NCBI GenBank assembly: GCA_943358095.1
Contig: CALRGT010000003.1
Span: 6,169 to 70,168, forward strand
Length of the DNA: 64,000 nucleotides
Origin: an uncultured Candidatus Saccharimonas sp.
Lineage (GTDB): Bacteria > Patescibacteriota > Saccharimonadia > Saccharimonadales > AQU-01
Direction: 5' to 3'
Each line of letters starts with the position of its first letter. Position 1 is the stretch's first letter. Made by a program: the position numbers and the translations under genes. Positions 1 through 18,503 of the stretch are shown here, piece after piece. The notes beneath the pieces were generated by a model. It searched no databases. It worked only from the letters and a program-made list of their open reading frames with translations, and was not told where the DNA came from.

Positions 1-1133
1 GGGTAGTGCTGGCAAATGGCGAAGTAATAGAGACGAGACGATTAAGCAAACGAGAGCTCGACAAAAAGCTTGGCCTAACGACTCTAGAGGGCGAAATTTA
101 CCGTTCATTAGATACGCTTATCGAAGAAAATAGCCAACTAATAAAGAACTTTCGACTGGGAGTTAGCAAGAACTCTGCAGGATTTGATATTTTTGATGTG
201 AAGCACAAGGACGGCTCCTTTGACCTTTCCCCGCTTATAATTGGTTCACAGGGAACACTAGGAATCGTTACCGAGGCTGTATTGTCGACATCGCCACATA
301 ATCCAGACACAACTGTTATTGCTGCTTTGTTTGACGATATTCAGGTGGCCGAACAGGTTATACTTGAGCTTCGTAAATTGCCAGAATCACCTAGTGCTAT
401 CGAAATGGTGGACGAGGCATTGTTAAATTTTGTCGACCAGCAAAATCCTCATCAGCTGAAGGGTGTATTTACTAAGCCTTTTCCTAGAATTGTTTTGTTG
501 ATAGAGTTTGATAATTTGAACGCAAGACTACAGAGTAAAATGGTTAAAAAAGCGACAAAGATACTTAAGAATAATCAGGTTGTTTACAAAGTAGAATCTG
601 AGGACCTAGCCAAAGAAAAATTATGGAAAATCCGCAACTCATCGGCAATTTTATACAGTCATTCAGATGGAGGAGCAAAACCATTACCAATAATAGAAGA
701 CGGTATCGTACCTGTTGAGAAATTTAGTGAATTTCTAGCTGGTATATATTTGCTATTTGAGAAATATAAACTAGTACCATCAGTTTGGGGTCACGCCGGA
801 GATGCGAATTTGCATGTTCAGCCAATATTAGACCTATCATTAGTTGGTGACAGGCAGAAGATTTTTAAATTAATGGAAGAATACAGTGAGTTAGTCATAG
901 GTTTAGGCGGCAGCACTTCAGGTGAGCATGGTGACGGCAGACTAAGAGCCCCTTATCTTAAGAAGCTCTACGGTGATGAAATTTATGCTATCTTCCAGAA
1001 AATAAAACTGATATTTGATCCTTATAATACAATGAACCCAGGCGTTAAGGTGAATGTGTCGATTGACGAGATTAAGCCTTTGCTTAGGCAGGAGTTTACA
1101 ATTAATCATGCTCAGCATCTACCTCACAACTAA
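1..1133 (+). CDS. FAD-linked oxidase, GlcD/D-lactate dehydrogenase family (5' end outside window)
   Basis: Frame stays open to the window edge. C-terminal FAD-oxidase signature GEHGDGRLRAPYL and FDPYNTMNPG tail. Stop at 1131-1133. Confidence 0.8.
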   Translation, partial: VVLANGEVIETRRLSKRELDKKLGLTTLEGEIYRSLDTLIEENSQLIKNFRLGVSKNSAGFDIFDVKHKDGSFDLSPLIIGSQGTLGIVTEAVLSTSPHNPDTTVIAALFDDIQVAEQVILELRKLPESPSAIEMVDEALLNFVDQQNPHQLKGVFTKPFPRIVLLIEFDNLNARLQSKMVKKATKILKNNQVVYKVESEDLAKEKLWKIRNSSAILYSHSDGGAKPLPIIEDGIVPVEKFSEFLAGIYLLFEKYKLVPSVWGHAGDANLHVQPILDLSLVGDRQKIFKLMEEYSELVIGLGGSTSGEHGDGRLRAPYLKKLYGDEIYAIFQKIKLIFDPYNTMNPGVKVNVSIDEIKPLLRQEFTINHAQHLPHN

Positions 1134-1136
1134 TTT

Positions 1137-1400
1137 ATGAAGGCGTATGACTTAATAGGACTAATCGGCGCGATATTTCTTCTTTTTGGATTCTATAGAG
1201 TTACTATTGGTAAATGGACCAACAAATCACTGTGGTACGAGCTAGATAATGTGATAGGACCAGTGCTACTAATAATTTACCAGTTACACCTACGAGCGTA
1301 TATTAGCGTGGTCCTTAATGCGGTTTGGGCGATTGTCGCCTTTAAGGGCATAACTTCCTACGCTGAAAGATTTGTTACTGCTCGTAGGTCAAAGCAATAG
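1137..1400 (+). CDS. small membrane protein, unknown function
   Basis: 87-aa ORF 4 nt after the previous stop. Two or three hydrophobic helices. No family recognised. Confidence 0.5.
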   Translation: MKAYDLIGLIGAIFLLFGFYRVTIGKWTNKSLWYELDNVIGPVLLIIYQLHLRAYISVVLNAVWAIVAFKGITSYAERFVTARRSKQ

Positions 1401-1469
1401 AGCTTGAGTTTTTGTCTAAAAAATAGTAATATAACAGAGTTATTATGACTGTAGGCGGTTGCCGACTTA

Positions 1470-1553
1470 GCGCGAGTGGTGGAATGGTAGACACGCTTGT
1501 CTGAGGGGCAAGTGCCGCAAGGTGTGGAGGTTCAAGTCCTCTCTCGCGCACCA
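1470..1553 (+). tRNA. tRNA-Leu(GAG)
   Basis: Acceptor GCGCGAG/CTCGCGC. Anticodon stem CTTGT/GCAAG with loop CTGAGGG. Long variable arm, T-loop TTCAAGT, encoded ACCA. Confidence 0.9.
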
Positions 1554-1566
1554 TAGTAATAGATTA

Positions 1567-1643
1567 GGGCGCTTAGCTCAGTTGGCTAGAGCATCTCGTT
1601 TACACCGAGAGGGTCGGGGGTTCGAGTCCCTCAGCGCCCACCA
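1567..1643 (+). tRNA. tRNA-Val(TAC)
   Basis: Acceptor GGGCGCT/AGCGCCC. D-arm GCTCAGTTGGCTAGAGC. Anticodon stem TCTCG/CGAGA with loop TTTACAC. T-loop TTCGAGT, encoded ACCA. Confidence 0.95.
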
Positions 1644-1652
1644 AGAATAAAA

Positions 1653-1675
1653 CCGACCCTAAAGGTCGGTTTTTT
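1653..1675 (+). terminator. intrinsic terminator after tRNA-Val
   Basis: Hairpin CCGACC-ctaaa-GGTCGG followed by TTTTTT. The 5' arm CCGACCCT is antisense to tRNA-Val AGGGTCGG. Confidence 0.8.
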
Positions 1676-1716
1676 CATGGCTTGGCGATGAAGCAAATGA
1701 ACTGCTTCATTTGCGT

Positions 1717-1832
1717 GGGGCGAAGAACAGTCGGAGCCTTGTGCGCCGGTACTTGGCGCACGGCGAGACGGGGTCGACCGCAAAATGCAAGGCATTTTGA
1801 CGGGTGACTCGAAAGTCCCTCAGCGCCCACCA
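1717..1832 (+). pseudogene. degenerate tRNA-Val-derived copy (tRNA-like remnant)
   Basis: GGGCG...CGCCC acceptor-like pairing. A 7-bp hairpin has loop GGTACTT with TAC central. The last 19 nt, AGTCCCTCAGCGCCCACCA, are identical to the tRNA-Val 3' end. No intact D or T arm. Confidence 0.6.
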
Positions 1833-1840
1833 AAGAAAAA

Positions 1841-1871
1841 TGCCAGACTTTATGTCTGGCATTTTTCTTTT
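1841..1871 (+). terminator. second intrinsic terminator after the tRNA-Val-like remnant
   Basis: Hairpin TGCCAGAC-ttta-tGTCTGGCA followed by TTTTTCTTTTT. Confidence 0.8.
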
Positions 1872-1922
1872 TAGACTTACTTATTTAGAGGTAGTACAAT
1901 TAGGTCATAAATAAGGAGCAAT

Positions 1923-2687
1923 ATGGGTACATTAATAACAATTTTGGTAGTTGGATTATTTATTATTCTAGTAAATAGTGTAAGGATTATTAATCAGTAC
2001 GAGCGTGGTGTTGTTTTTCGCCTTGGTAAAGTTCAGGGTGATATTAAGCAGCCCGGCCTAAGATTAATTATCCCAATTATCGACCAAATGCGTAAAGTCC
2101 CACTACGTACAATTACTCTGCCGATCGAAACACAAAAAATTATCACAAAAGACAATGTTTCGATCGATGTTTCGGCTGTTGCTTATTACCAAGTAGCAGA
2201 TCCAATTAAATCAATTGTTGAGATCGAGAATGTTGTTTCGGCAACTTATCAGATCGCTCAGACTACCGTGCGTAATGTTGTTGGCCAGTCAACTATGGAT
2301 AATGTGTTGAGTGAAACTACGGAATTGAACGAAAAAGTTAAGTCTATTTTGGATATAGCTACCGAAAAATGGGGTATATATGTTAGCAATGTTGAGCTAA
2401 AGGACATCCAGCTACCTGAAAGCATGCAGCGAGCTATGGCCAAACAAGCTGAAGCAGAGCGTGAAAAACGTGCAAAAATTATTGCTGCTGAAGGTGAAGC
2501 CCTAAGTGCTGCCAAGTTAGGTGAAGCAGCTGATATCATCAGCGCTCACCCAATTGCATTGCAACTTCGTAATCTCCAGGTTCTTAGTGAAATTGCGGTC
2601 GAAAAGAACTCAACTATCATTTTCCCAAGTCAATTCATGGACACAGTCTCAAGCGTCAAAGAATTCATGGCCAAAGAGACTAAGTAA
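1923..2687 (+). CDS. SPFH/band-7 (stomatin-like, slipin) family protein
   Basis: N-terminal TM helix. Motifs [31 protein letters not shown] and a C-terminal [12 protein letters not shown] coiled region typical of the stomatin/HflK-C family. Confidence 0.9.
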
Positions 2688-2688
2688 A

Positions 2689-3015
2689 GTGTCAGATTCT
2701 AAAACATTAAAAGAATATCAAAAACAAGTCGACGACCAATTGCAGCCTTATTTAAAACCATATTGGGATCCGCTCAGTAACATGGCCAGGCTTACGGAAG
2801 AGGCGGGGGAAGTAGCAAGAATACTCAATCATCAATTTGGCGATAAGCCCAAGAAAGATAATGAAGAGCATGAGGATCTTGCTGACGAGCTCGCCGACAT
2901 TATCTATACGGTCATTTGTTTGGCTAATAGCCAGGGCATAGAACTTGACCCAGCACTAGAAAGGGCGATAGCAAAACTAGAGACAAGAGATGCTGGTAGA
3001 TTTGCTAAGAAGTAG
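2689..3015 (+). CDS. MazG-type nucleotide pyrophosphohydrolase domain protein
   Basis: GTG start 2 nt after the SPFH stop, in frame with ORF 2521-3015. EEAGEVARIL ... ELADIIYTVICLAN is the MazG EExxE/ExxD helix pair. Confidence 0.8.
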   Translation: MSDSKTLKEYQKQVDDQLQPYLKPYWDPLSNMARLTEEAGEVARILNHQFGDKPKKDNEEHEDLADELADIIYTVICLANSQGIELDPALERAIAKLETRDAGRFAKK

Positions 3016-3066
3016 TAAACTTGAAAAACCCCCTGTTTTCAAGTAGAATACTCTGGTTACTAGCGT

Positions 3067-3142
3067 GGCTCTTTAGCTCAGTTGGTAGAGCAGGGGCCTG
3101 AAGAGCCCTGTGTCCCCAGTTCGAGTCTGGGAGGAGCCACCA
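3067..3142 (+). tRNA. tRNA-Phe(GAA)
   Basis: Acceptor GGCTCTT/AGGAGCC. Anticodon stem GGGGC/GCCCT with loop CTGAAGA. T-loop TTCGAGT, encoded ACCA. Confidence 0.95.
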
Positions 3143-3152
3143 AAGTAAAAGT

Positions 3153-3180
3153 CTCAGCCGTAAGGCTGGGGCTTTTTCTT
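3153..3180 (+). terminator. intrinsic terminator after tRNA-Phe
   Basis: Hairpin CTCAGCC-gtaa-GGCTGGG followed by CTTTTTCTTT. Confidence 0.75.
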
Positions 3181-3322
3181 TGGCCTAGGCTTTGCCTAGG
3201 GACTCGAACTGCTACAGTTCGCTAATTCACTGAAAAGTAAGTTTCTTTTCAGTGAATTATATCCTGAGACCGAGTCGCATCGTGCGACGCGGCTCGAGGG
3301 AGTATTCTGGGAGGAGCCTCCA
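3181..3322 (+). repeat. tRNA-Phe-derived trailer (inverted + direct self-fragments)
   Basis: GACTCGAACTG (3201-3211) is the exact reverse complement of the tRNA-Phe T-loop region CAGTTCGAGTC, followed by a direct CAGTTCG. A 14-bp hairpin carries CTGAAAAG (compare anticodon loop CTGAAGAG). It ends with TCTGGGAGGAGCCtCCA versus tRNA TCTGGGAGGAGCCaCCA. Confidence 0.6.
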
Positions 3323-3331
3323 ATAAAAACA

Positions 3332-3613
3332 TTAGTCTAGATGCTTAAAATTACGCGTTAACAGCCAAAGCATACAAAGTCCAAGAAGTCCGGTGAGTAT
3401 ATCTGTTAAGTAAGAGGAATCAACCGGCAATAACCTATCTAAAATATTCCAGGACGCACGCCAAAATAACACTGTTGCTATTGCGATGCCGATATAATGC
3501 ACTTGTCCAAGTTTTCGCTTCTTCATCAACCCATCATAATCGTTTATGTCTTTTAAGTCTATTGCCTTAGTGTTTGTTTGTGCACTTGTCTCTGTAGTTA
3601 CATTTTGATACAA
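3332..3613 (-). CDS. small membrane protein, unknown function
   Basis: 93-aa ORF with two C-terminal hydrophobic helices. No family recognised. Confidence 0.5.
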   Translation of the reverse strand: MYQNVTTETSAQTNTKAIDLKDINDYDGLMKKRKLGQVHYIGIAIATVLFWRASWNILDRLLPVDSSYLTDILTGLLGLCMLWLLTRNFKHLD

Positions 3614-3629
3614 TCTCTTGAGTAAACAT

Positions 3630-3706
3630 GCGGGTGTAGCTCAGTTGTTTAGAGCGCGTCCTTGCCAAGGACGAGGCCAAGGGTTAGAGTCCCTTTACCC
3701 GCACCA
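3630..3706 (+). tRNA. tRNA-Gly(GCC)
   Basis: Acceptor GCGGGTG/TACCCGC. Anticodon stem CGTCC/GGACG with loop TTGCCAA. Unusual D-loop AGTTGTTTA and T-loop TTAGAGT. Encoded ACCA. Confidence 0.9.
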
Positions 3707-3715
3707 AAATTAGAG

Positions 3716-3741
3716 CCCCACGAAAGTGGGGTTTTAATTTT
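3716..3741 (+). terminator. intrinsic terminator after tRNA-Gly
   Basis: Hairpin CCCCAC-gaaa-GTGGGG followed by TTTTAATTTT. Confidence 0.75.
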
Positions 3742-3750
3742 GGTTTGAGA

Positions 3751-3843
3751 TTCTAACCCTTGGCCTCGTCAAAATCAAATAATAGGCCAAGTGTCTTCCT
3801 CGACCGCCTACGGTCGAGGCGTTAGAGTCCCTTTACCCCTAAC
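3751..3843 (+). repeat. tRNA-Gly-derived trailer (inverted + direct self-fragments)
   Basis: TTCTAACCCTTGGCCTCGTC (3751-3770) is the reverse complement of tRNA-Gly GACGAGGCCAAGGGTTAGAg (19/20). Then a direct AGGCCAAG, an inserted 8-bp hairpin CCTCGACC/GGTCGAGG, and GTTAGAGTCCCTTTACCC, 18/18 identical to the tRNA 3' part. Confidence 0.65.
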
Positions 3844-4017
3844 TAGAAATTTGATTTATCGCGTCGATGCTAGTATTTACGATGAGTCAAAAGTAGTCGT
3901 GCCTGGCTGTTTAACTCGCGACCTTATTGAGGGCTAGCTCTAGGTAACCCGTTGATTTATTAACAAGTGTAATTTATAATTACGCTAAAGGTAATTGGTT
4001 TTATAGGGTTTGAGGGG

Positions 4018-5703
4018 ATGAGGATAGCTTTAATGCAGAGATTTAGAACTATATTGTCTAAATTGGCGCTGTTAAGTGCGGCGTTGATAATAAGTGGTGC
4101 TCCTAGAGCATTTGCTTTGGTTGGCCCGCACTCATTTACCAATACCGAAACTGGCGATGTTTATTTGGGCGGCGACTACATAGAGCTTGGTATAAGTAAA
4201 CCTGGATCATTCGGAACTACTCTCGGTACAATTCCCACAGGTTTTTTTGGAACCTCTATAGTTAGTGTCGGCATGACTACTAATCCATCTGGATTGGGTG
4301 AGACTCCTAACTTGATTATGGATTACTTTTTACCAGGCTCGCCAGAAGAGCGTTGGGTAGTTGGATATAAAGAGAATGGAACGCCTGCAATTGGCTCTAA
4401 CAGCCTACTTATGAATAATTTATATAATAATAGCCTAGATATGCCAGACAACGTTGTGACTAATCAATCGACAGGAGATCTACTAAAGGCCACGAGTCTT
4501 GGTACGCTAAACAACAAACTACAGACAACGCAGGTTATATCTTTTAACCGTGCGGATAAGTATTTTAGAAATCAGGTAACCTTAAAGAATGTGGGTGTCG
4601 CATCCATAGACAGCGTACGTTTTATGCGTAATTTTGACCCTGATAATACTGTTTTTCAGGGCGGAAGTTACACTACTCACAATACAATACCGTTCACCCA
4701 AGAAGCCGGTGACGGTAAGGCAGTAGTTATTGCTGATACTAACCGACCAGGACTAGTCGACCCGGTTAAAGCAGTGAACGGCTCAGACTCACCAATAATG
4801 TTTTATAGTAGTGATTCCCGAGCAAGAGTTTCAATATACGGGTTTAGTAACAAGAATCCCTATCAGGCACAAGCATATGATGAGGCGCTACCGAAAGGAA
4901 CTGTTATTGTTGGTGACTTATCCGTTACTATAACTTTTGATGTCGGAACGTTGGCTCCAGGTGCATCCGAGACAGTAGTTTACTATACTAGCCTCGATAA
5001 CCGTGATTTCACAGAAGTTGTAGCCGCGATCGAGAGTAATGATAGCGACAACATCGAAAAAGCAGTAGAAGATGCAGCACCAAATAACGGTGATAGTAAC
5101 GGCGATGGCATAGCTGACAGTACGCAGGATAGCGTCGCAGCTTTTCCAAACAGCGTGGTTGGAGGCGGCGCCTACCAGACGCTCACTAGTAGCGGTGACT
5201 GTTCTACTGTCAAAGAGGTTAGCGGTGGTGCAGTAGAAACATTTGGCGTAGATAGCTCATACAAGTACCCGCTCGGCCTCGCTAGCTTTACTTTAGCTTG
5301 TGCTAATCCTGGTGGAACAGCACATATAAAAATATTTTATGACAAGGTATATGATACGACTGCCTGGAAGGCTAGAAAATTTGTCAAAGGTTCGTTTATC
5401 GACATTCCTGGGGCCGTTTTTGGAGCTGCTGACGTTGGCTCCACAAAGGTGACTACTTTGTCTTACGATGTCACTGATGGTGGGATCCTAGATTCAGATG
5501 GATTAACAGATGGCGTAATCATAGATCCAGCGGGTCCTGCGCAACTTAAATTAACCGCACCCAACACTGGTTTTTATAACGATCAATCTGGGCTAAAGGC
5601 TTTGATGACAGGACTATCTTTACTTACTGCTGGAGTCTTGAGTTTGTGGTTTATTGGTAGACAGCACGCTCGATTCCTCGGCGACAGCTCAGACATTAAA
5701 TAG
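4018..5703 (+). CDS. secreted cell-surface protein with LPXTG-like (APNTG) C-terminal sorting signal
   Basis: N-terminal signal peptide ending APRAFA. Acidic D/G-rich repeat (NNGDSNGDGIADS). C-terminus is APNTG + hydrophobic helix + RQHAR tail. Confidence 0.7.
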   Translation: MRIALMQRFRTILSKLALLSAALIISGAPRAFALVGPHSFTNTETGDVYLGGDYIELGISKPGSFGTTLGTIPTGFFGTSIVSVGMTTNPSGLGETPNLIMDYFLPGSPEERWVVGYKENGTPAIGSNSLLMNNLYNNSLDMPDNVVTNQSTGDLLKATSLGTLNNKLQTTQVISFNRADKYFRNQVTLKNVGVASIDSVRFMRNFDPDNTVFQGGSYTTHNTIPFTQEAGDGKAVVIADTNRPGLVDPVKAVNGSDSPIMFYSSDSRARVSIYGFSNKNPYQAQAYDEALPKGTVIVGDLSVTITFDVGTLAPGASETVVYYTSLDNRDFTEVVAAIESNDSDNIEKAVEDAAPNNGDSNGDGIADSTQDSVAAFPNSVVGGGAYQTLTSSGDCSTVKEVSGGAVETFGVDSSYKYPLGLASFTLACANPGGTAHIKIFYDKVYDTTAWKARKFVKGSFIDIPGAVFGAADVGSTKVTTLSYDVTDGGILDSDGLTDGVIIDPAGPAQLKLTAPNTGFYNDQSGLKALMTGLSLLTAGVLSLWFIGRQHARFLGDSSDIK

Positions 5704-5814
5704 TCATTCGCAACCAAAATATTTATTATCGTAAGTCGTTAATATTCGTGTGCAAAAACAGTAGAAGTCGGTGCCTATTTCGTAGTTTAGTTATAAGCAA
5801 TAGAGCTATGTATA

Positions 5815-6615
5815 ATGGTAGATATGAAAACACTCAACGAAATCATTGATCTATCCGGAAAGTCGGCAATTGTAACTGGTGGGGCAAAAGGTATTGGATA
5901 CGGCATAGCCTATAGGCTGGCAGAGGCAGGTGCAAAGGTGCTGATAGCAGATCTTGACGATGTAACAGCGCAGGAGGCCGCAAACGAGCTTACCGGTAAG
6001 GGCTGGACTGTTAAGGCGATAAGAACTGATGTATCTGACGAACAGGCCGTAAAAATGATGATAGACGCCTGTAAAGAGCTGTATGGCTCAGTTGATATTT
6101 TGGTGAATAACGCTGGCATTTATCCGTCTGAGCCGGTTTCTAGTATGACAGCCGAAGGATTCGACAAGGTCATGCATGTAAACCTCAGAAGTGTATTCCT
6201 AACTACTAAGTACGCGTCGGAAGTTATGAAAGAGCAGGGTGGTGGCAAAATTATTAATGTGTCATCAATTGACGCGCTACATCCATCAATGATTGGGCTC
6301 GCTCATTATGACGCCTCAAAGCACGGCGTATGGGGGTTCACCAAAAATTCAGCTCTTGAACTTGCCGAACATAAGATTTGGATTAACGCGATTGCACCAG
6401 GTGGCATAGCTACTCCTGGAGTCGTTGCCAGTAGTGGTGGTGCTAGCGGCGAGCAAATGGCAGAGGCGACAAAGGCTTTTCTTGGTAAGATCCCTATGCA
6501 TCGAATGGGCGAATCCGACGAGATTGGAAAGGTTGCATTATTCTTAGCAAGCGACATGTCTAGCTATATGACAGGTAGTCAAATAGTGGTCGACGGCGGA
6601 GTACTATTAAGCTAA
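5815..6615 (+). CDS. SDR family oxidoreductase (FabG/glucose dehydrogenase-like)
   Basis: TGGAKGIGYGIA cofactor motif, NNAG, and catalytic S...YxxxK (YDASKHG). Confidence 0.9.
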   Translation: MVDMKTLNEIIDLSGKSAIVTGGAKGIGYGIAYRLAEAGAKVLIADLDDVTAQEAANELTGKGWTVKAIRTDVSDEQAVKMMIDACKELYGSVDILVNNAGIYPSEPVSSMTAEGFDKVMHVNLRSVFLTTKYASEVMKEQGGGKIINVSSIDALHPSMIGLAHYDASKHGVWGFTKNSALELAEHKIWINAIAPGGIATPGVVASSGGASGEQMAEATKAFLGKIPMHRMGESDEIGKVALFLASDMSSYMTGSQIVVDGGVLLS

Positions 6616-6841
6616 ATTTCGTTAAAAAGCTTATGTCTATTGACATTATGGTGTAAAATCTAAATAGCTTCCTTAAAAAAGAAGTAGGTTTCCGCTAAAG
6701 CCAAAAGCTGGTTGTGGAAACAGAAAGTTTGAAGTCTAGGGGATACCCTGGGAATATTCAATACTACTAAAAAAGATATCGAGCAATATACTCGATTCAT
6801 CGGTTAGAGCTTTGATTGCTGCAGAAATCAAAACTCCGACT

Positions 6842-6883
6842 AAAAATTATAAACACCTCACAAAAGGGGTGTTTATAATTTTT
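6842..6883. terminator. bidirectional hairpin terminator in AT-rich spacer
   Basis: 16-bp perfect stem AAAAATTATAAACACC / GGTGTTTATAATTTTT with a 10-nt loop. A-run and T-run flanks. Confidence 0.6.
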
Positions 6884-7148
6884 AGGCCCAATAGTGACTA
6901 AGAACTATTTATGAATTTACCCTTTTATTGTATTTTTGACACCACTAACAATTATGACGATTGTGACACTAAAATATGTGCTTAAAATATTTTAACAGAT
7001 TGAGATTATGTCAAAATAATGACATTATAGTTTGTTCATAAATTAAAACTATTGCAAAAGCCAATTTTGAGGCATATAATTTGTCGGTAAATTACATTAG
7101 ATACGCTCTAATGAAAAATAATAAATTAATTATTACGTAGGAGTTTTT

Positions 7149-7472
7149 ATGGCTGTTAATGGTGAATATCTATCAATGCCCGAAGATAATGGTTTTGGTC
7201 TACAAGATGGTTGGTCATCTAGATTAAAGAGCGTGTTTTCATCACGAAAAGAAGAAGTTACTGCTGTAGAGCACGTTGAACATACTAGCCACCACACTTC
7301 TCCTATCCCAGAAGTAGCTCTAGGTGGTATCGTTATCAATCAAGGTGTTATTCCTGCCACTAAAAGAAACGGTCAGATAGACGAAAATCATCCTGGTTAC
7401 GAAATTAATATTTACAAGTCGTCATCATTGCTCTCAGCTGAAGGACAGTCAGCGGAAAGATTCATAGCTTAA
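7149..7472 (+). CDS. hypothetical protein
   Basis: 107-aa ORF with strong SD (AGGAG) 7 nt upstream of ATG. No family recognised. Confidence 0.5.
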   Translation: MAVNGEYLSMPEDNGFGLQDGWSSRLKSVFSSRKEEVTAVEHVEHTSHHTSPIPEVALGGIVINQGVIPATKRNGQIDENHPGYEINIYKSSSLLSAEGQSAERFIA

Positions 7473-7493
7473 CAGCTCTATTAGTGTCCTATT

Positions 7494-9104
7494 ATGCACG
7501 CAAAGAGTATAATAGGACACAGTTATATGGATCCGTCTACAAAAAAATCTGATATATTTATTTTGCTCCAAGAGCAGTTATTAAATGCGCGCGCGAACGA
7601 CCAGCTTATTCGCGCCGACAACACCAAAGGCAAGAAGATCACCGTGCCTAATACAGGCAAGGCTATATCGTCAGCCTACGAGCAGTTGCGCAATGCTGCC
7701 GAGTACGCAGAAGATCATTTAATTTTGCAGAGAGCGATTAGAAGATTTTTGAAGCGTAGTTTGTTTATCGGCAAGGTTGAGTTGGTTGATCTTGGTGAGG
7801 ATTTAATTATAGAACTCGTGCAAGCAGGTTATCTTAAGGAGACGGAGCTAGGCTCAAAAGTTGCCGGCTCTATTAGTCAGTTAGCAGCTAGCTACGAGGA
7901 TGTTTATCACCGGCTTCGGCAATCGCATGTTACTAAGGTACAGGCTCAAGATTGGGTGCTATCTATATTGTCGGTAGAGATTGAGTCGATCCTGAACCCT
8001 CAAAACCATCATTACGCACTATTATATGTTGCTCAGTATCATTTTATGGATATGCTGCCGCGCCGAAAACTTGTTGTTAATCAAACCGAAGATGATCAAT
8101 ACGAGATTTCATTATATGCGGCCGTACATCTTGCCTTGTTTAAGTCAGATATAGCAGTGGTTAGGCACGATATAATGCGCGTTTATCAGCAATCTCCAGA
8201 CGATTTGAAGGGTTTTATATCTATGAACCGACATATTGACGATTTGTATCTCGCCAAGCTAACTCATCGACTTAGGCGTAATGTCGGCAAGAACGGTGCT
8301 CCGTTTAGGATTCTTAAAAGTATGTGCGACGATTTCCCCAATACAGTAGACATGCTCAGTGATCGTCAGCAGTTTCTGCAGGCATACAGACGACAAATTG
8401 ATATCGAGTTCGAGAATGTACACAAAAGAGTGAACAAGGGAATTGTTAAGAGTATTTTCTTTATCCTTATTACAAAAGTTATTATCGGTGTTGGCATTGA
8501 GGTTCCCTATGATCTTGTAACTACTGGCGCAGTAGCTGGCGTTCCGTTGCTGGTGAATCTTGCCACGCCTCCACTTTATATGGCAAGTCTAAAGTTTAGT
8601 CTTAAATCGCCACAATCACTTAGCAAGCAGACTCTCATAGAATATATAAACACTATGATTTACACTGACGACAAGCCGCCTCTATTGATGGTTAGGCCGG
8701 TGTCTAGTAGTCGATATATGGTTAATTGGGTGTATTCTATTTTGTTCTTTGTGCCGTTCGCTTTGCTTGTTTATATTCTAAAATTGCTAGATTTTAATAT
8801 TCCACAGATGATCATATTCTTTACATTCTTATCTACTGCCAGCTTCCTAGGTTTCCGACTGAGCAGTAAGATTCGTGAAGTTGAATTCGGCGATCGTCAG
8901 TCATCCGGTTTTATGACGTCATTAAGAGATTTTTTCTATCTGCCGTTTATAGTTTTTGGGCAATGGATATCTGGTAAGTATTCTAAGATTAATTTAGTAA
9001 GTAATGTGCTGGATATTGTTATAGAGTTGCCGTTAAAGACAATACTTAAATTAGCGCGTCAGTGGGTTACTTTCCTAGATCAAAAACAAGAAGAAATATA
9101 CTAG
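7494..9104 (+). CDS. hypothetical membrane protein (soluble N-terminal ~320 aa, C-terminal multi-TM region)
   Basis: 536-aa ORF with 4-6 hydrophobic helices in the C-terminal third. No family confidently recognised. Confidence 0.6.
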   Translation: MHAKSIIGHSYMDPSTKKSDIFILLQEQLLNARANDQLIRADNTKGKKITVPNTGKAISSAYEQLRNAAEYAEDHLILQRAIRRFLKRSLFIGKVELVDLGEDLIIELVQAGYLKETELGSKVAGSISQLAASYEDVYHRLRQSHVTKVQAQDWVLSILSVEIESILNPQNHHYALLYVAQYHFMDMLPRRKLVVNQTEDDQYEISLYAAVHLALFKSDIAVVRHDIMRVYQQSPDDLKGFISMNRHIDDLYLAKLTHRLRRNVGKNGAPFRILKSMCDDFPNTVDMLSDRQQFLQAYRRQIDIEFENVHKRVNKGIVKSIFFILITKVIIGVGIEVPYDLVTTGAVAGVPLLVNLATPPLYMASLKFSLKSPQSLSKQTLIEYINTMIYTDDKPPLLMVRPVSSSRYMVNWVYSILFFVPFALLVYILKLLDFNIPQMIIFFTFLSTASFLGFRLSSKIREVEFGDRQSSGFMTSLRDFFYLPFIVFGQWISGKYSKINLVSNVLDIVIELPLKTILKLARQWVTFLDQKQEEIY

Positions 9105-9165
9105 ATTACTGATAGGTCACTTATTCCACTCCGCAACTCATTGTGTTGTTAGCCTATCTATTAAT

Positions 9166-9203
9166 AAATATACCGCTAGCCAATGACTAGCGGTATATTT
9201 GTT
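9166..9203. terminator. bidirectional terminator between convergent genes
   Basis: 13-bp stem AATATACCGCTAG / CTAGCGGTATATT, loop CCAATGA, T-rich 3' flank. Confidence 0.7.
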
Positions 9204-9222
9204 CTAGATCTATGTAAATCTT

Positions 9223-11154
9223 CTATTCGAAGGTTACTGGTACTAGTTCGGCGTTAAGCCTCGAGTCTTGGCCTAGTCCGTAGTAGTCATAGGCAGGACT
9301 TGAGTTGTTTGCAAGTGAGGTGTATAGAAGTGAACGTAGTTTCCTGATACCCTTGTGACGCTTAGGAATAAATCTTTCACGTGCTACGTAAATAATCCAG
9401 TCTTTCATGTCGTCGTTTGGTGTTAGTTTGTCATTTGCGGCAATGTCACGTATTACTTGTTCGACATCAGGCTGTTCCATGAAGCCAAAGTTAGCGCTAA
9501 TTGCAAGTAGACTAGTGCCTTTCTTGTGGTTGTTCTCGAACTCTTTAATCGTGTAACGATCGGCCTCGTCAACATATGGTCGCTTAATTTGTTTAATGTT
9601 AAGGCTAATAATATGGTTTGGTAGACTTTGGTAACGATTAATGAATAGCTCGAGCAGTGGTGGCGCCATGTCGGTAAGCTTATTGACGCTACGGTCAGAT
9701 AGTACTAATAGGCTACGTTCAAAGACGTGCTCTTGCTTGTGCTTAATTTTCAATATTTTGGCAATGGTAAGGGTCGAGTGACTGTTCAGGGTCTTAGACC
9801 AGTGGTGGCGACCCCATCCCCACGCACCCATAACCGCTGACAGCGTTAAGCCTATTGTGATCGGAACATAACCGCCCTGGAAGAACTTTAGACTATTTGC
9901 AGTCAGGAACATACTGTCAAGCGCTAAGATCGGCAAGAAAACAGCAAGACTTACAAGTTTTGACCATCTCCAAATTTTTTGGGAGATTAAAATCATACTT
10001 AAGGTAGTCACAAACATTACGCCCGAAACAGCCAGGCCGTAGGCACTGGCCAGATTGGTGCTACTGCCAAAGCCAATCACTAGAAGTACACAGCCAACAT
10101 ATAGGGCCCAGTTTACGAACGAGATATAGATCTGACCATGGTGGTGTTCGTGGGTATGGCTGATACGGAGACGCGGCAAGAGGCCTAGAGCGATACCCTG
10201 TGATGTTAGACTAAAAGCCCCAGAAATAAGGGCTTGGCTTGCGATTACCGTTGCCAGGCTGGCAAGAATTACCATTGGAACGAGAAGTGCAGACGGAACT
10301 AAGCTATAGAAAAGACTCCCACCTATTACTTCTCGGCCTTGGAGTAGAAAAGCACCTTGGCCCAAGTAATTTAATATCAGGCAGGGCATAACAACAACGA
10401 ACCAACTTATACGAATTGGTAGTGCCCCAAAATGTCCCATATCGGCATATAACGCTTCGCCTCCGGTTATGACCAGCACAACCGATCCAAGTAAAATAAA
10501 TAATTTTTCAATCGGGAATAGCGTAAACGCACGTACGGCAAATGCAGGGTTAAATGCTTCCAGAATAGAAGCATCACTAATAATTTCGCGGATACCGAGT
10601 GCAGCCAGTGATATGAACCATATCAATATAATTGGTCCAAATAACTTACCAATCTTATGTGTGCCATATGACTGGATCGCAAATAGGCCTGTTAGTATCA
10701 ATATAGTAATTGGGACAATATATGCGCTTAGTGTTGGGGTAATCACTCTAAGGCCTTCGACGGCAGACAGTACACTGATAGCAGGGGTGATCACACCTTC
10801 ACCAAATAAAAGTCCAGCTGACATCATGAGTAAGGCAAAAACTGGCAAAACAATTTTTTGCCTATATCGTTGAAGAAGCGCGAAAAGTGAAAAGACTCCA
10901 CCCTCTCCTTCGTTATCGGCTCTAAGTACCCAAAATATGTACTTAAAAGCAATGACAATAATAAGTGTCCAAATTATAAGGGATATTAGGCTAAGTATAT
11001 TTGTTCTGGACAGTTCTGGCCTAAAGTGCCCAAAGAACATTTCGTTTACTGAATACAGTGGACTGGTGCCGATATCGCCGTAGACTATACCGAGTGCACC
11101 AAATGATAATCCGAGCACTCCTAATTTGGAGCGCTTTGTAAGGTGATCTGACAT
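9223..11154 (-). CDS. kup: KUP/HAK/KT family potassium transporter
   Basis: 643 aa, 12 TM plus cytosolic C-domain. N-terminal GALGIVYGDIGTSPLY and ADNEGEGG motifs are diagnostic of Kup. Confidence 0.95.
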   Translation of the reverse strand: MSDHLTKRSKLGVLGLSFGALGIVYGDIGTSPLYSVNEMFFGHFRPELSRTNILSLISLIIWTLIIVIAFKYIFWVLRADNEGEGGVFSLFALLQRYRQKIVLPVFALLMMSAGLLFGEGVITPAISVLSAVEGLRVITPTLSAYIVPITILILTGLFAIQSYGTHKIGKLFGPIILIWFISLAALGIREIISDASILEAFNPAFAVRAFTLFPIEKLFILLGSVVLVITGGEALYADMGHFGALPIRISWFVVVMPCLILNYLGQGAFLLQGREVIGGSLFYSLVPSALLVPMVILASLATVIASQALISGAFSLTSQGIALGLLPRLRISHTHEHHHGQIYISFVNWALYVGCVLLVIGFGSSTNLASAYGLAVSGVMFVTTLSMILISQKIWRWSKLVSLAVFLPILALDSMFLTANSLKFFQGGYVPITIGLTLSAVMGAWGWGRHHWSKTLNSHSTLTIAKILKIKHKQEHVFERSLLVLSDRSVNKLTDMAPPLLELFINRYQSLPNHIISLNIKQIKRPYVDEADRYTIKEFENNHKKGTSLLAISANFGFMEQPDVEQVIRDIAANDKLTPNDDMKDWIIYVARERFIPKRHKGIRKLRSLLYTSLANNSSPAYDYYGLGQDSRLNAELVPVTFE

Positions 11155-11276
11155 TATTACCTCTTAATTGATTAATTATTGTAAAAGCTTGGAGAAGTTT
11201 TTGTTTGAATTTAAGTGCCTATAGTAACACATCTAAATACGCAAAAAAAGTCTTTTCAGATATAATTTATTTAGCT

Positions 11277-11666
11277 ATGAATACAGCACCAAACAATGAG
11301 CCAGAAAGAAGCGTCGAATCTGAAGAGATTCGCCTTGGTGTTCATAATATAGACCCGACAAGGGATATGAGTATATCTGCTAAAGATTCAGAAGGTAGGG
11401 CGGTAAGTCTTAGTGACTTCCGTACGGAAAATAACGGAGAAGATGACGACGAGCATGTTTTGGCCAGAGTAGGCTATACGACAAAAGATGGAGAGTTCCA
11501 AGCCGAAGAAGTTCGGATGAGCAAAAGAGTCGTTGCAGCCGGCAAAACAACAATGGAGGTTGTTCAGCGCAACAAGGGTAAGATTGCTGTTGTTGGGTCG
11601 GTTGTGGTCGCTATTGCAGCTGGAACTGGGTTGTTGATACGTCGCAATCATCGTAGTGGCGACTAA
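11277..11666 (+). CDS. hypothetical protein with C-terminal TM anchor
   Basis: In-frame ATG 10 nt after a TATAAT box (11261-11266). The TTG at 11205 in the ORF track is less likely. No family recognised. Confidence 0.5.
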   Translation: MNTAPNNEPERSVESEEIRLGVHNIDPTRDMSISAKDSEGRAVSLSDFRTENNGEDDDEHVLARVGYTTKDGEFQAEEVRMSKRVVAAGKTTMEVVQRNKGKIAVVGSVVVAIAAGTGLLIRRNHRSGD

Positions 11667-11742
11667 ATTATTCCGCATATTATTTACAGAGACGTTGAGT
11701 CTAGAGCTCTAATCCTATAGAATGAACTGGATAAGATATAAT

Positions 11743-11816
11743 GGCGCCTTGGCCGAGCAGTTAGGCAGAGGTCTGCAAAACCTCGTAGATGGGTGCGACT
11801 CCCATAGGTGCCTCCA
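11743..11816 (+). tRNA. tRNA-Cys(GCA)
   Basis: Acceptor GGCGCCT/AGGTGCC. Anticodon stem GAGGT/ACCTC with loop CTGCAAA. T-stem ATGGG/CCCAT with atypical T-loop TGCGACT. Discriminator T + CCA. TATAAT directly upstream. Confidence 0.8.
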
Positions 11817-11834
11817 ATGATATACTTATATTAT

Positions 11835-11922
11835 GGGCGAGTGGCGGAATTGGTATACGCGATAGACTTAAAATCTGTTGACTGAATAAGTCTTGTGGGT
11901 TCAAGTCCCACCTCGCCCACCA
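11835..11922 (+). tRNA. tRNA-Leu(TAA)
   Basis: Acceptor GGGCGAG/CTCGCCC. Anticodon stem ATAGA/TCTGT with loop CTTAAAA. Long variable arm, T-loop TTCAAGT, encoded ACCA. Confidence 0.9.
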
Positions 11923-11932
11923 TAATAAAATG

Positions 11933-11954
11933 CTCCCTTTTTAGGGAGTTTTTT
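11933..11954. terminator. terminator after tRNA-Cys/Leu pair
   Basis: Hairpin CTCCC-ttttta-GGGAG followed by TTTTTT, with an A-run on the other side. Confidence 0.7.
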
Positions 11955-11961
11955 ATTACTG

Positions 11962-12690
11962 CTAGTATTTCCACTGATCAGGTATTTTGTTGATGCACTC
12001 TGGAATTTTCTGTAATTCGTTTAGACCGGATCGGCCAATGCAGCGGATATTCTTCATGGCCTTATTAGTAAAGCTGCCTTGTTCTATTATCGAGCCATCG
12101 TCGGCAATGTAGCTGAAGGGGTCTGCAAAATAGTTGCCAAGGAATTTTGCCGATCCTTCCATGAATGTTTTTGCGCTTGCGGGAACGGAATTACCAAGCC
12201 TAAGCTGTTCGTTTGCCAGTAGGACGCTATTAAGCAAGAAGCTTTTTCGGGGTCCAGCTACATTGTGCAAATCTGATTCTACTACTAGTGTTGCTTCGTT
12301 GGTGGGCCTTGGTTGGCCGAGCTGTGTTGCTATAATCGCTATTTCAACTTTTTCGACATAGTCTTCGTCGTGGCCCATTTCTAATAAATTAGTTCTGGCA
12401 GTTGCTGCGGCCAGAGCCTCCTTGCTGACAAAGCCATTTTTTTGCGGGTCTAGTTGAAAGTCGGCGTCATGCCATAAAATTGCATCGTCAACTACGTCAG
12501 CATCTAGCGTTACTCCAAGCCGGCTCAGATTAGGAATCCGCTTGCTTGCATACTCTCTCATAGACGTCACATGATTCCAATTATGATAGTCAAGATTGTA
12601 GTAGTGAGTCTTTGCTAGCTCTTGGGAGTAGGCCCTAAGTTCGGGAGAAGATTTATCCATTGTTATTTCATTATAATAGAGTATTGTCAA
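11962..12690 (-). CDS. hypothetical protein, possible HD-domain phosphohydrolase
   Basis: H...HD pattern (NWNHVTS ... ILWHDADF). Weak assignment. Confidence 0.4.
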   Translation of the reverse strand: MTILYYNEITMDKSSPELRAYSQELAKTHYYNLDYHNWNHVTSMREYASKRIPNLSRLGVTLDADVVDDAILWHDADFQLDPQKNGFVSKEALAAATARTNLLEMGHDEDYVEKVEIAIIATQLGQPRPTNEATLVVESDLHNVAGPRKSFLLNSVLLANEQLRLGNSVPASAKTFMEGSAKFLGNYFADPFSYIADDGSIIEQGSFTNKAMKNIRCIGRSGLNELQKIPECINKIPDQWKY

Positions 12691-18142: not shown

Positions 18143-18173
18143 ATAAAAACCCTATCAAGTATAGGGTTTTTAT
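18143..18173. terminator. bidirectional hairpin terminator
   Basis: Stem AAAAACCCTAT / ATAGGGTTTTT, loop CAAGT. A second GC-rich hairpin CCACCCG/CGGGTGG (18113-18129) with an A-run lies just upstream. Confidence 0.7.
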
Positions 18174-18176
18174 AAT

Positions 18177-18270
18177 GATGGAGGCACAGAGACAGCCCAC
18201 TTCAATCCGAGCCCTAGCGCCAAGCTGAAGCTTGTCGCGGTCCAGGGCTCGAAGCTCAATAACTTGACCA
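18177..18270 (-). repeat. tRNA-Ala-derived trailer (inverted + direct self-fragments)
   Basis: In tRNA sense: CTTCGAGCCCTGGACC is antisense to tRNA GGTCCAGGGTTCGAG. It is followed by a direct AGGGCTCG and CTGTGCCTCCATCA (tRNA has CTGTAGCTCCACCA). Confidence 0.6.
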
Positions 18271-18298
18271 AAATAAAAACCCATCCTTATGGGATGGG
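18271..18298 (-). terminator. intrinsic terminator after tRNA-Ala
   Basis: On the minus strand, CCCATCC-cataa-GGATGGG followed by TTTTTATTTT. Confidence 0.75.
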
Positions 18299-18307
18299 AT
18301 CTTATTT

Positions 18308-18384
18308 TGGTGGAGCTACAGGGACTCGAACCCTGGACCTCTTCACTGCCAGCGAAGCGCTCTAGCCAACTGAGCTACAGCCCC
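18308..18384 (-). tRNA. tRNA-Ala(GGC)
   Basis: Reverse complement reads GGGGCTG...TAGCTCC-ACCA with G3:U70. Anticodon stem CTTCG/TGAAG with loop CTGGCAG. T-loop TTCGAGT. Confidence 0.95.
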
Positions 18385-18420: not shown

Positions 18421-18429
18421 ATTATACCA
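18421..18429 (-). promoter_or_regulatory. extended -10 promoter element for tRNA-Ala
   Basis: Minus strand reads TGGTATAAT about 37 nt upstream of the tRNA 5' end. Confidence 0.5.
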
Positions 18430-18503
18430 GTTGGCCAGAGCGCTTAAGCGCATCTTTTATTTTTGCAACAAGTTGCCCCAACTGAGCTTCGTCCCCAAAA
18501 TAA
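18428..18503 (-). repeat. tRNA-Ala-derived leader (direct 5' fragment + inverted D-arm fragment)
   Basis: In tRNA sense: TTTTGGGGACGAAGCTCAGTTGG (tRNA has TTTTGGGGCTGTAGCTCAGTTGG). Then GCGCTCTGGCCAACTGG, antisense to the D-arm CTCAGTTGGCTAGAGCGC (15/18). Confidence 0.6.

Follow-up and report, generated by a model that had tools for sequence, protein, structure and literature searches.

How does a tRNA gene come to be followed by pieces of itself in both orientations? The question is raised by positions 3143–3322 of a 64,000-nucleotide stretch of DNA (the window) from an uncultured Candidatus Saccharimonas sp., where the intact tRNA-Phe gene is trailed by direct and inverted tRNA-like segments set among several hairpins. 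A first-pass annotation attributed this trailer to local inverted duplication, which would have turned tRNA loops into stems, and discounted a simple duplication of a phage-type attachment (att) site. The analysis presented here leads to another answer: the trailer is probably a cargo-less, integrase-less mini-island, resembling a cis-mobilizable element (CIME), integrated at the T-loop/3′ end of tRNA-Phe. With the incoming DNA came a new tRNA 3′ end and a palindromic terminator-like hairpin, whilst the old 3′ end was displaced 180 bp downstream, giving rise to a 17–18-bp direct repeat (attL/attR). At the core of this repeat, modules and small gene cassettes stack, are exchanged and are lost in the population.

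Anatomy of the tRNA-Phe trailer

All of the trailer pieces first described are present. The locus is laid out below; alpha and beta denote two module types which recur in sister strains.

3067–3142, plus strand: intact tRNA-Phe(GAA) gene (ARAGORN; Rfam tRNA, 65 bits)
3126–3143, plus strand: core copy 1, TCTGGGAGGAGCCACCAA, the left copy (attL), being the 3′ part of tRNA-Phe from T-loop position 60 on (end of the T-loop, 3′ strand of the T-stem, 3′ strand of the acceptor, ACCA, A)
3140–3183: palindromic terminator-like hairpin, term alpha (CCAAAG...CTTTGG), from inverted repeat and folds
3184–3200: hairpin CCTAGGC-TTT-GCCTAGG, present only in the alpha-type left arm
3198–3211, plus strand: inverted T-arm copy, AGGGACTCGAACTG, reverse complement of tRNA-Phe positions 51–61
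3212–3226, plus strand: CTA loop, direct copy of tRNA positions 51–57 (CAGTTCG, 3215–3221) and CTAAT
3224–3237 / 3245–3258: hairpin hp1, a perfect 14-bp stem, beta-type right arm
3264–3300: hairpin hp2, CCGAGTCGCA-TCG-TGCGACGCGG with outer pairs, beta-type right arm, from inverted repeat and fold
3301–3323, plus strand: AGTAT and core copy 2 (attR), TCTGGGAGGAGCCtCCAA, the displaced copy of the tRNA 3′ end

The two core copies (3126–3143 and 3306–3323) agree at 17 of 18 positions with a spacing of 180 nt, and at all 18 in the sister strain L087. The longest direct match to the tRNA within the trailer is 13 nt and exact, a length reached in none of 2000 dinucleotide shuffles. The longest inverted match is 11 nt (p = 0.003, again with 2000 dinucleotide shuffles), GACTCGAACTG (3201–3211) being the 11/11 reverse complement of CAGTTCGAGTC (3117–3127). 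Both tRNA-derived pieces, the 3′-end copy and the inverted T-arm copy, surpass shuffled sequence. The inverted copy is not strictly cognate, since its extended form AGGGACTCGAAC matches the T-loops of tRNA-Val and tRNA-Ala over 12 nt. Together with CTA and CAGTTCG it forms a 7-bp central hairpin which is common to alpha and beta modules.

The two large hairpins do not share this origin. A tRNA source had been proposed for the 14-bp hairpin, yet CTGAAAAG and CTGAAGAG agree at only 7 of 8 positions, a chance-level match of which some 4–5 are expected per orientation (69 x 173 positions x 25/65536). Nor are the large hairpins palindromised tRNA loops; they are module-specific, and are swapped or have their stems broken between strains. 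The GTCGCA/TGCGAC pairing noticed earlier lies within the 10-bp stem of hp2 (3270–3279 / 3283–3292). Term alpha constitutes the left arm of the module, its stem beginning at the CCA of tRNA-Phe, and is not listed on either strand by a simple terminator scan. At the position of the CCTAGG hairpin the beta type has ACTGAC-TTTT-GTCAGT instead.

Modules have a GC content of 48–57%, against 41% for the window, and the tRNA-Phe trailer folds far more stably than its shuffles, both as RNA (z = -7.9) and as single-stranded DNA (z = -9.5). A scan of positions 1–12500 against Rfam (E <= 1) produced no match in the trailers, 3143–3322 included; blastn of 3100–3340 against phage and plasmid collections was likewise negative, as was a search of metagenome DNA with a pattern comprising attR and its flank.

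The unoccupied site, the population and neighbouring tRNA genes

Matches of the flanking proteins place the window in Candidatus Saccharibacteria/Saccharimonadales. Orthologous loci from other Saccharimonadales species, retrieved via the Band_7 protein, reveal the site in its unoccupied form. In five such species tRNA-Phe and tRNA-Gly are separated by 1, 9, 67 or 74 nt (adjacent, at 1–74 nt, in L007–L010) or by an unrelated gene-bearing insert of 1195 nt, and none of the five has direct or inverted tRNA copies between the two genes. Since Phe adjoins Gly elsewhere without such copies, 3143–3629 represents lineage-specific inserted DNA, and the empty site expected of an att-flanked island is at hand. 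The flanking direct repeats are a segment of the tRNA 3′ end and the intact tRNA gene stands at one end, as in islands; like CIMEs, the modules are bordered by att sequences, encode neither recombination nor transfer functions and lie in tandem with other elements at the same site. Another species (L012) has a different mini-unit of ~95 nt with a 17-nt direct T-arm copy. With the 556-aa downstream protein as a synteny anchor, distant matches had no tRNA-Gly or tRNA-Phe alongside and only close strains were informative.

Variation within the clade defines the unit. More than 30 contigs, 88–100% identical to the window, were gathered into a sister set by a DNA pattern scan and through near-identical MazG or Band_7 proteins. 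In these, the stretch between the core copies behaves as a discrete module, of which there are two types and hybrids, occurring singly or in tandem. The alpha module consists of terminator A, the CCTAGG hairpin, the central hairpin, a GC hairpin hp2′ and ...AGTAT; the beta module of terminator B, the ACTGAC hairpin, the same central hairpin, hp1, hp2 and ...AGTAT. The shared central hairpin comprises the inverted T-arm copy, CYA, MAGTTCG and CTAAT, and it is here that the window module, a hybrid, joins an alpha left arm to a beta right arm. In L087 and L089 hp1 is replaced by an unrelated hairpin, CCCCCGTCGC...GGGCGG, and in L101, L102, L113 and L114 it carries stem-breaking substitutions.

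At least 10 distinct complete array architectures are found. Beta stands alone in 14 complete contigs and the hybrid in 5, and alpha alone is also seen; tandem arrays run beta-alpha in L102 and alpha-beta in L098. Across 19 contigs, 11 pairings of four left-arm with six right-arm types are found, and in every one the joint lies at the core. A truncated core with a 16-nt filler, a signature of decay, is present in L101, L114, L120, L133 and L134. The modules alternate with gene cassettes of 1–3 kb which are again joined precisely at the core. One encodes an ABC ATPase and an FtsX permease (L099, L101, L133); in L133 this 3-kb cassette has the core on both sides and ends in AGTAT plus core, where the window has the core and then directly the flank. 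In L100 an APH-family kinase gene lies between two near-identical alpha copies, and the cassette of L098 has a 281-codon open frame (265 aa from the first ATG) with no Pfam match. The earlier dismissal of att duplication was mistaken: two core copies bound a discrete insertion, which other species lack and which in sister strains is found, missing, repeated in tandem or recombined, its junctions always at the core. What holds of that reading is that tRNA-derived sequence occurs in both orientations and that the inverted T-arm copy is not foreseen by duplication of att alone. The local-duplication proposal had been staked on shuffled controls and on conservation in close relatives, and only half of this holds: shuffles do not match the tRNA as well, yet the trailer is conserved only in a species-level clade.

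Two features of the wider locus may be recorded here. One sub-lineage (L103–L110; 8765–8835 in L103) has no MazG gene, Band_7 being followed directly by tRNA-Phe with a different leader, and has other genes in place of the 556-aa downstream gene. Contigs of 20–144 kb from different samples (L123–L126) break off ~0.3–1.2 kb beyond Band_7, where the MazG gene or the tRNA-Phe/Gly arrays lie; these assemblies thus stop at or just before the arrays.

The arrangement is not confined to tRNA-Phe. All eight tRNA genes of the window were compared with the window by k-mers and by direct reading, and modules are present at four, namely Phe, Val, Gly and Ala; the two tRNA-Leu genes, tRNA-Cys and tRNA-Gln have none within the window. 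The features outside the tRNA-Phe trailer are as follows.

1567–1643, plus strand: tRNA-Val(TAC) gene, followed at 1644–1813 by module V1 (170 nt)
1814–1833, plus strand: 20-nt core copy of the tRNA-Val 3′ end; second palindromic terminator at 1830–1870
3332–3526, minus strand: small two-helix membrane open reading frame (ORF), 64 aa from an internal ATG of a 93-aa ORF
3630–3838, plus strand: tRNA-Gly(GCC) gene (3630–3706) and its 132-nt module
3704–3743: palindromic terminator of the Gly module
3752–3770: inverted copy of tRNA-Gly positions 41–59 (19 nt)
3784–3791 and 3821–3838: split direct copy of tRNA-Gly positions 44–51 and 54–71, with a 22-nt hairpin between (3798–3819)
18143–18384, minus strand: tRNA-Ala(GGC) gene (18308–18384) and its degraded module
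18268–18310, minus strand: palindromic terminator of the Ala module
18237–18252, minus strand: inverted T-arm copy of the Ala module
18206–18216, minus strand: direct partial copy
18176–18191, minus strand: degenerate copy of the tRNA 3′ end
18143–18173, minus strand: second terminator

Every module variant at the four tRNA genes opens with a CCAA...TTGG palindrome at the CCA, the sequence of the stem differing from one to the next. Compared by BLAST with the window and with each other, the four trailers had nothing in common beyond the tRNA-derived pieces, and a single repeat family or miniature inverted-repeat transposable element is rejected for want of shared sequence. What recurs is a layout: terminator, inverted T-arm copy and split direct copy. 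This layout is seen at tRNA-Gly, at tRNA-Ala (inverted match p = 0.02 by shuffling) and in the two diverged Phe module types. It is found too in a distant Patescibacteria lineage, Paceibacterota, where at 7781–8200 of locus L023 a tRNA-Arg(GCG) gene with no encoded CCA precedes a perfect 25-bp palindrome; behind this come an inverted copy of the T-arm (12 nt), GC-rich hairpins and a direct copy of 14 nt. The inverted T-arm copy is real and conserved, being shared by the alpha and beta modules of Phe, by Gly, by Ala and by L023, and is explained only in part.

The Val and Gly sites also vary between strains. V1 is absent from L103 and L115, exactly at the 20-nt repeat, despite an identical Band_7 protein, whilst in L102 and L105 it is followed by a second module, V2; after V1 and V2 some strains have a gene for a membrane protein of 560–580 aa which the window lacks. 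The interiors of V1 and V2 (window 1680–1813; L103 5971–6114) have 57% GC against 41% and multi-hairpin folds with no Rfam match, and in one predicted fold the 5′ end of V1 is paired to the copied strand of the acceptor. In L102 a 429-aa gene lies between the inverted and direct Gly copies. Its product has no Pfam match, and reading of its sequence suggests a pilin-like N-terminus. Because TCAAA stands at both L102 junctions, the 132-nt Gly module of the window appears to be a microhomology-deletion derivative of a cargo-bearing element. The start of L003 (97% identical, a contig of an NCBI metagenome-assembled genome) has the right end of the Gly module fused to GCACCA and its left end, which could be a tandem or a circular junction. 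No match to the tRNA-Gly core was found in viral contigs.

Several observations concern these genes and their neighbours. The 93-aa ORF (frame 3332–3613, minus strand), which lies between the Phe array and tRNA-Gly and was skipped by the gene caller, has no homologue among loci L001–L086 and no convincing Pfam family. Its two-helix membrane product is 83% identical in some sister strains, largely deleted in others and absent from other species; it may itself be an old cassette. Upstream of tRNA-Ala there is a direct copy of its 5′ end, GGGGACGAAGCTCAGTTGGGGCAAC (18472–18496, minus strand), near promoter-like TATAAT boxes, and an inverted D-arm copy (18427–18445, minus strand); to judge from their sequence, these 5′-side copies (18427–18496) look like a mirror-image insertion bringing a new promoter. 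Saccharimonadales tRNA-Gly(GCC), in the window and in L007–L013, has the T-loop TTAGAGT, with A in place of the usual C56, and a D-loop, AGTTGTTTA, without the GG pair, which may reflect a covarying 19:56 tertiary pair. At L006 (1–1207) tRNA-Gln, a terminator and a 12-nt direct T-arm copy precede an OLD-family nuclease gene (AAA_15/AAA_21 and an OLD-like TOPRIM domain), which has the look of a tRNA-docked defence gene.

Proposed recombination in trans and competing explanations

If the trailer is a mini-island, its insertion and subsequent accretion would have been catalysed in trans by the site-specific recombinase of an autonomous element. No recombinase gene lies inside the module, which is gene-less and so without the integrase of a typical island. 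Searches of the 64-kb window and of the arrays turned up neither an Xer-like nor a large serine recombinase; the Xer probe sequence did match recombinases in four unrelated loci (L058, L059, L093, L094). In the sister strain L114, which lacks the Gly module, a 540-aa large serine recombinase (Resolvase, Recombinase and Zn_ribbon_recom domains) is encoded on the reverse strand directly after the CCA of tRNA-Gly, followed by DnaD/RepO-like and DNA-methylase genes; this region (1845–8932) is a candidate autonomous element, and its recombinase may exemplify the type of enzyme involved. In a viral contig (L096) the 3′ half of tRNA-Phe, anticodon loop through CCA, is found with a terminator of its own. 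The L114 element and the L096 half-tRNA indicate that autonomous tRNA-targeting elements exist in this lineage.

The course of events may have been the classical one, in which an element restores the tRNA gene and displaces its old 3′ end, with tandem accretion and deletion to follow. The modules of 140–200 bp seen today would then be the deletion-resistant att arms of once larger elements, a derivation which the gene retained within the Gly module of one strain (L102) fits. The inverted T-arm copy would belong to the att-proximal arm and, with the direct copies, make the att region a large imperfect palindrome. As hypotheses, it could bind the recombinase or an accessory protein, contribute to a folded-strand substrate, or have no role.

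A number of points weigh against this account. No recombinase is tied to the modules, and the L003 junction could be a tandem copy. The patterns of presence and absence could result from repeat-mediated deletion and homologous exchange, without ongoing site-specific activity. Because the modules share no sequence between tRNAs, a single recombinase would have to read structure, or only CACCAA and the palindrome. The hybrid core TCTGGGAGGGTCCACCA of L102 is at odds with one fixed point of crossover. Standard att models do not foresee the inverted T-arm copy, which the ABC and APH cassettes lack, and the GC content and very stable folds of the modules would also suit a structured RNA.

One alternative is an integron-like platform anchored at tRNA genes. 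The modules would be active folded single-strand sites, in which pairing between the inverted and the split direct copies imitates the T-arm duplex of the tRNA gene, extra hairpins being bulged out, and a host or trans-acting recombinase would insert and shuffle promoter-bearing micro-cassettes at several tRNAs. The inverted copy is indeed contiguous, and the direct copy is interrupted exactly at self-folding hairpins, so that its pieces meet only in the folded strand. Three-way-junction folds are predicted with z = -6.2 to -9.5 (for Gly single-stranded DNA, z = -6.2 in integrated order and -7.9 in junction order), although such a fold follows automatically once both copies exist. In junction (attP) order the inverted and split direct copies enclose the core and terminator in one long imperfect palindrome. 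Arms are shuffled combinatorially and precisely at the core, cargo-less and cargo-bearing units alternate, and the distant L023 locus has the same layout; since each CCAA...TTGG palindrome differs in sequence, structure has been kept where sequence has not. Against this, there is no adjacent recombinase, the ABC and APH cassettes have no inverted copy, the Gly cargo of L102 lies between inverted and direct copies, unlike that of integron cassettes, and the hairpins gather stem-breaking mutations. The searches yielded no tyrosine recombinase, and it is Band_7 and MazG that lie upstream of tRNA-Phe; by eye, neither the attC core consensus nor a dif/Xer site was recognised. Such a platform is regarded as unlikely. 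A wider proposal, that in Saccharibacteria and perhaps other Patescibacteria tRNA 3′ ends serve as integron-like docking platforms for recombinase-less micro-cassettes of 0.14–3 kb, through a trans-acting enzyme reading the folded att module, is offered only tentatively and is itself doubtful.

It is improbable that the trailer arose locally with no mobile element, through break repair or template-switching at a highly transcribed tRNA gene which copied tRNA pieces in both directions and added filler hairpins. Such a process could account for tRNA pieces in both orientations within 200 nt, for the repeat around the beta module in L103 and L113, which reaches 10 nt past the tRNA into the local flank (27 nt in total), and for the 16-nt filler segments of L101, L114 and L133. 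It leaves unexplained, however, why foreign gene cassettes are bounded by the same core, why the same module occurs both beside the tRNA and between cassettes, why four tRNAs share one layout, and where the unique GC-rich interiors of 100–150 nt came from when they have no local template.

A functional RNA is less probable still. The inverted copy might pair with the T-arm in read-through precursors and so control the folding or 3′ processing of tRNA-Phe, or the trailer might yield a tRNA-like RNA of ~150 nt ending in a CCA-bearing 3′ half. Competition between trailer and T-arm, raised by the first-pass annotation, is seen in the predicted minimum free energy fold of 3067–3330, where the T-arm gives way to a helix between T-arm and inverted copy (z = -8.6), and the elevated GC content of the modules is compatible with an RNA. 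The first 84 nt of the trailer are identical in three strains; in L089 this does not speak for selection, since the identity belongs to a recombination tract which also covers the 3′ end of MazG. An RNA role is rendered unlikely by the terminator-like hairpin and T-run which intervene between tRNA and inverted copy, by the absence of the trailer from other species, and by module interiors that are freely swapped or deleted between strains; variation within the clade consists mostly of module swaps and unpaired substitutions, and no Rfam family matches at E <= 1. Several further readings were rejected by inspection: a retroelement primer-binding site, since the Gly copy is without the CCA end; duplication of a casposon or transposon target, since the units do not end in terminal inverted repeats; aberrant joining by a serine recombinase at a palindromic CG dinucleotide, since the wrong ends of the half-sites are joined; a dif/Xer-like site, to which no likeness was noted; and a minus-strand pseudo-tRNA, since there is no T-stem.

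Comparison with known systems

As a footprint of mobile DNA the CIME-like mini-island is of a familiar kind, though unusually miniature. It departs from the closest described case in the size of the units, their presence at four neighbouring tRNAs, the CCA-anchored palindromes and the inverted T-arm copy. Bacteria of the Candidate Phyla Radiation have tiny genomes and are generally portrayed as having little mobile DNA; here, stacked insertion modules lie behind 4 of 8 tRNA genes in 64 kb, and in sister strains the same sites hold accessory genes for an ABC transporter, an APH-family kinase, the protein with the pilin-like N-terminus and a membrane protein. As it is there that modules and accessory genes vary, tRNA 3′ ends appear to be the main hot spots of gene exchange in this population, and they also appear to be a cause of assembly breaks. 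For annotators, trailers made of tRNA pieces are att footprints first and candidate RNAs second, whilst the inverted T-arm copy and the CCA-anchored palindromes provide a testable lead on site recognition.

Parallels can be drawn with several described systems. The attC sites of integrons are palindromic and conserved in structure rather than in sequence, and folded single strands are known as recombination substrates for integron attC and for CTX phage attP. The pdif modules of Acinetobacter plasmids are small recombinase-less cassettes shuffled at short specific sites (PMC6449649). The present arrays differ from both: they have no IntI gene, they are anchored at a tRNA gene, and their repeat restores the 3′ end of that tRNA.

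Fragments of tRNA genes (attR) are reportedly left behind by phage and island integration, as Reiter in 1989 and Williams in 2002 are said to have described. Integration into the 3′ part of a tRNA gene leaves a partial 3′ copy downstream of the intact gene, with identity from the T-loop to the CCA, and the documented cases span ~9–121 kb of element DNA (PMC9897764). The repeats considered here are 138–190 bp apart and are accompanied by an extra inverted copy.

CIMEs are att-flanked elements without integrase or transfer genes which lie in tandem at the same site and are thought to be deletion products of larger elements. As generally described, they are kilobases long and stand beside an autonomous element. 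The present modules measure 140–200 bp, in an array with no autonomous partner; what hints at mobilization in trans is the large serine recombinase element at the neighbouring tRNA-Gly in L114. The term CIME is used in PMC3146451 and PMC5704250.

The closest described parallel is found in Dehalococcoides, in its tandem ssrA islands (McMurdie et al. 2011, PMC3146451). There, islands with 20-bp repeats are inserted at the T-loop and lie in tandem downstream of ssrA; the autonomous ones encode a large serine integrase of 540 residues on the reverse strand next to attL, and 15 islands without an integration module are proposed to be cis-mobilizable. Both settings are small streamlined genomes in which islands are stacked behind one tRNA-like gene with 3′-end repeats of ~20 bp, and both have a reverse-strand recombinase of 540 residues next to attL, as in L114. 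There are also differences. The units described here are far smaller, at 0.14–3 kb (gene-less modules of 140–200 bp and cassettes of 1–3 kb), they occupy four different tRNA genes within 20 kb, and none of the arrays examined has a recombinase. Finally, the inverted T-arm copy and the CCA-anchored palindromes, which are features of the present arrays, go unmentioned in the part of the Dehalococcoides account used for this comparison.

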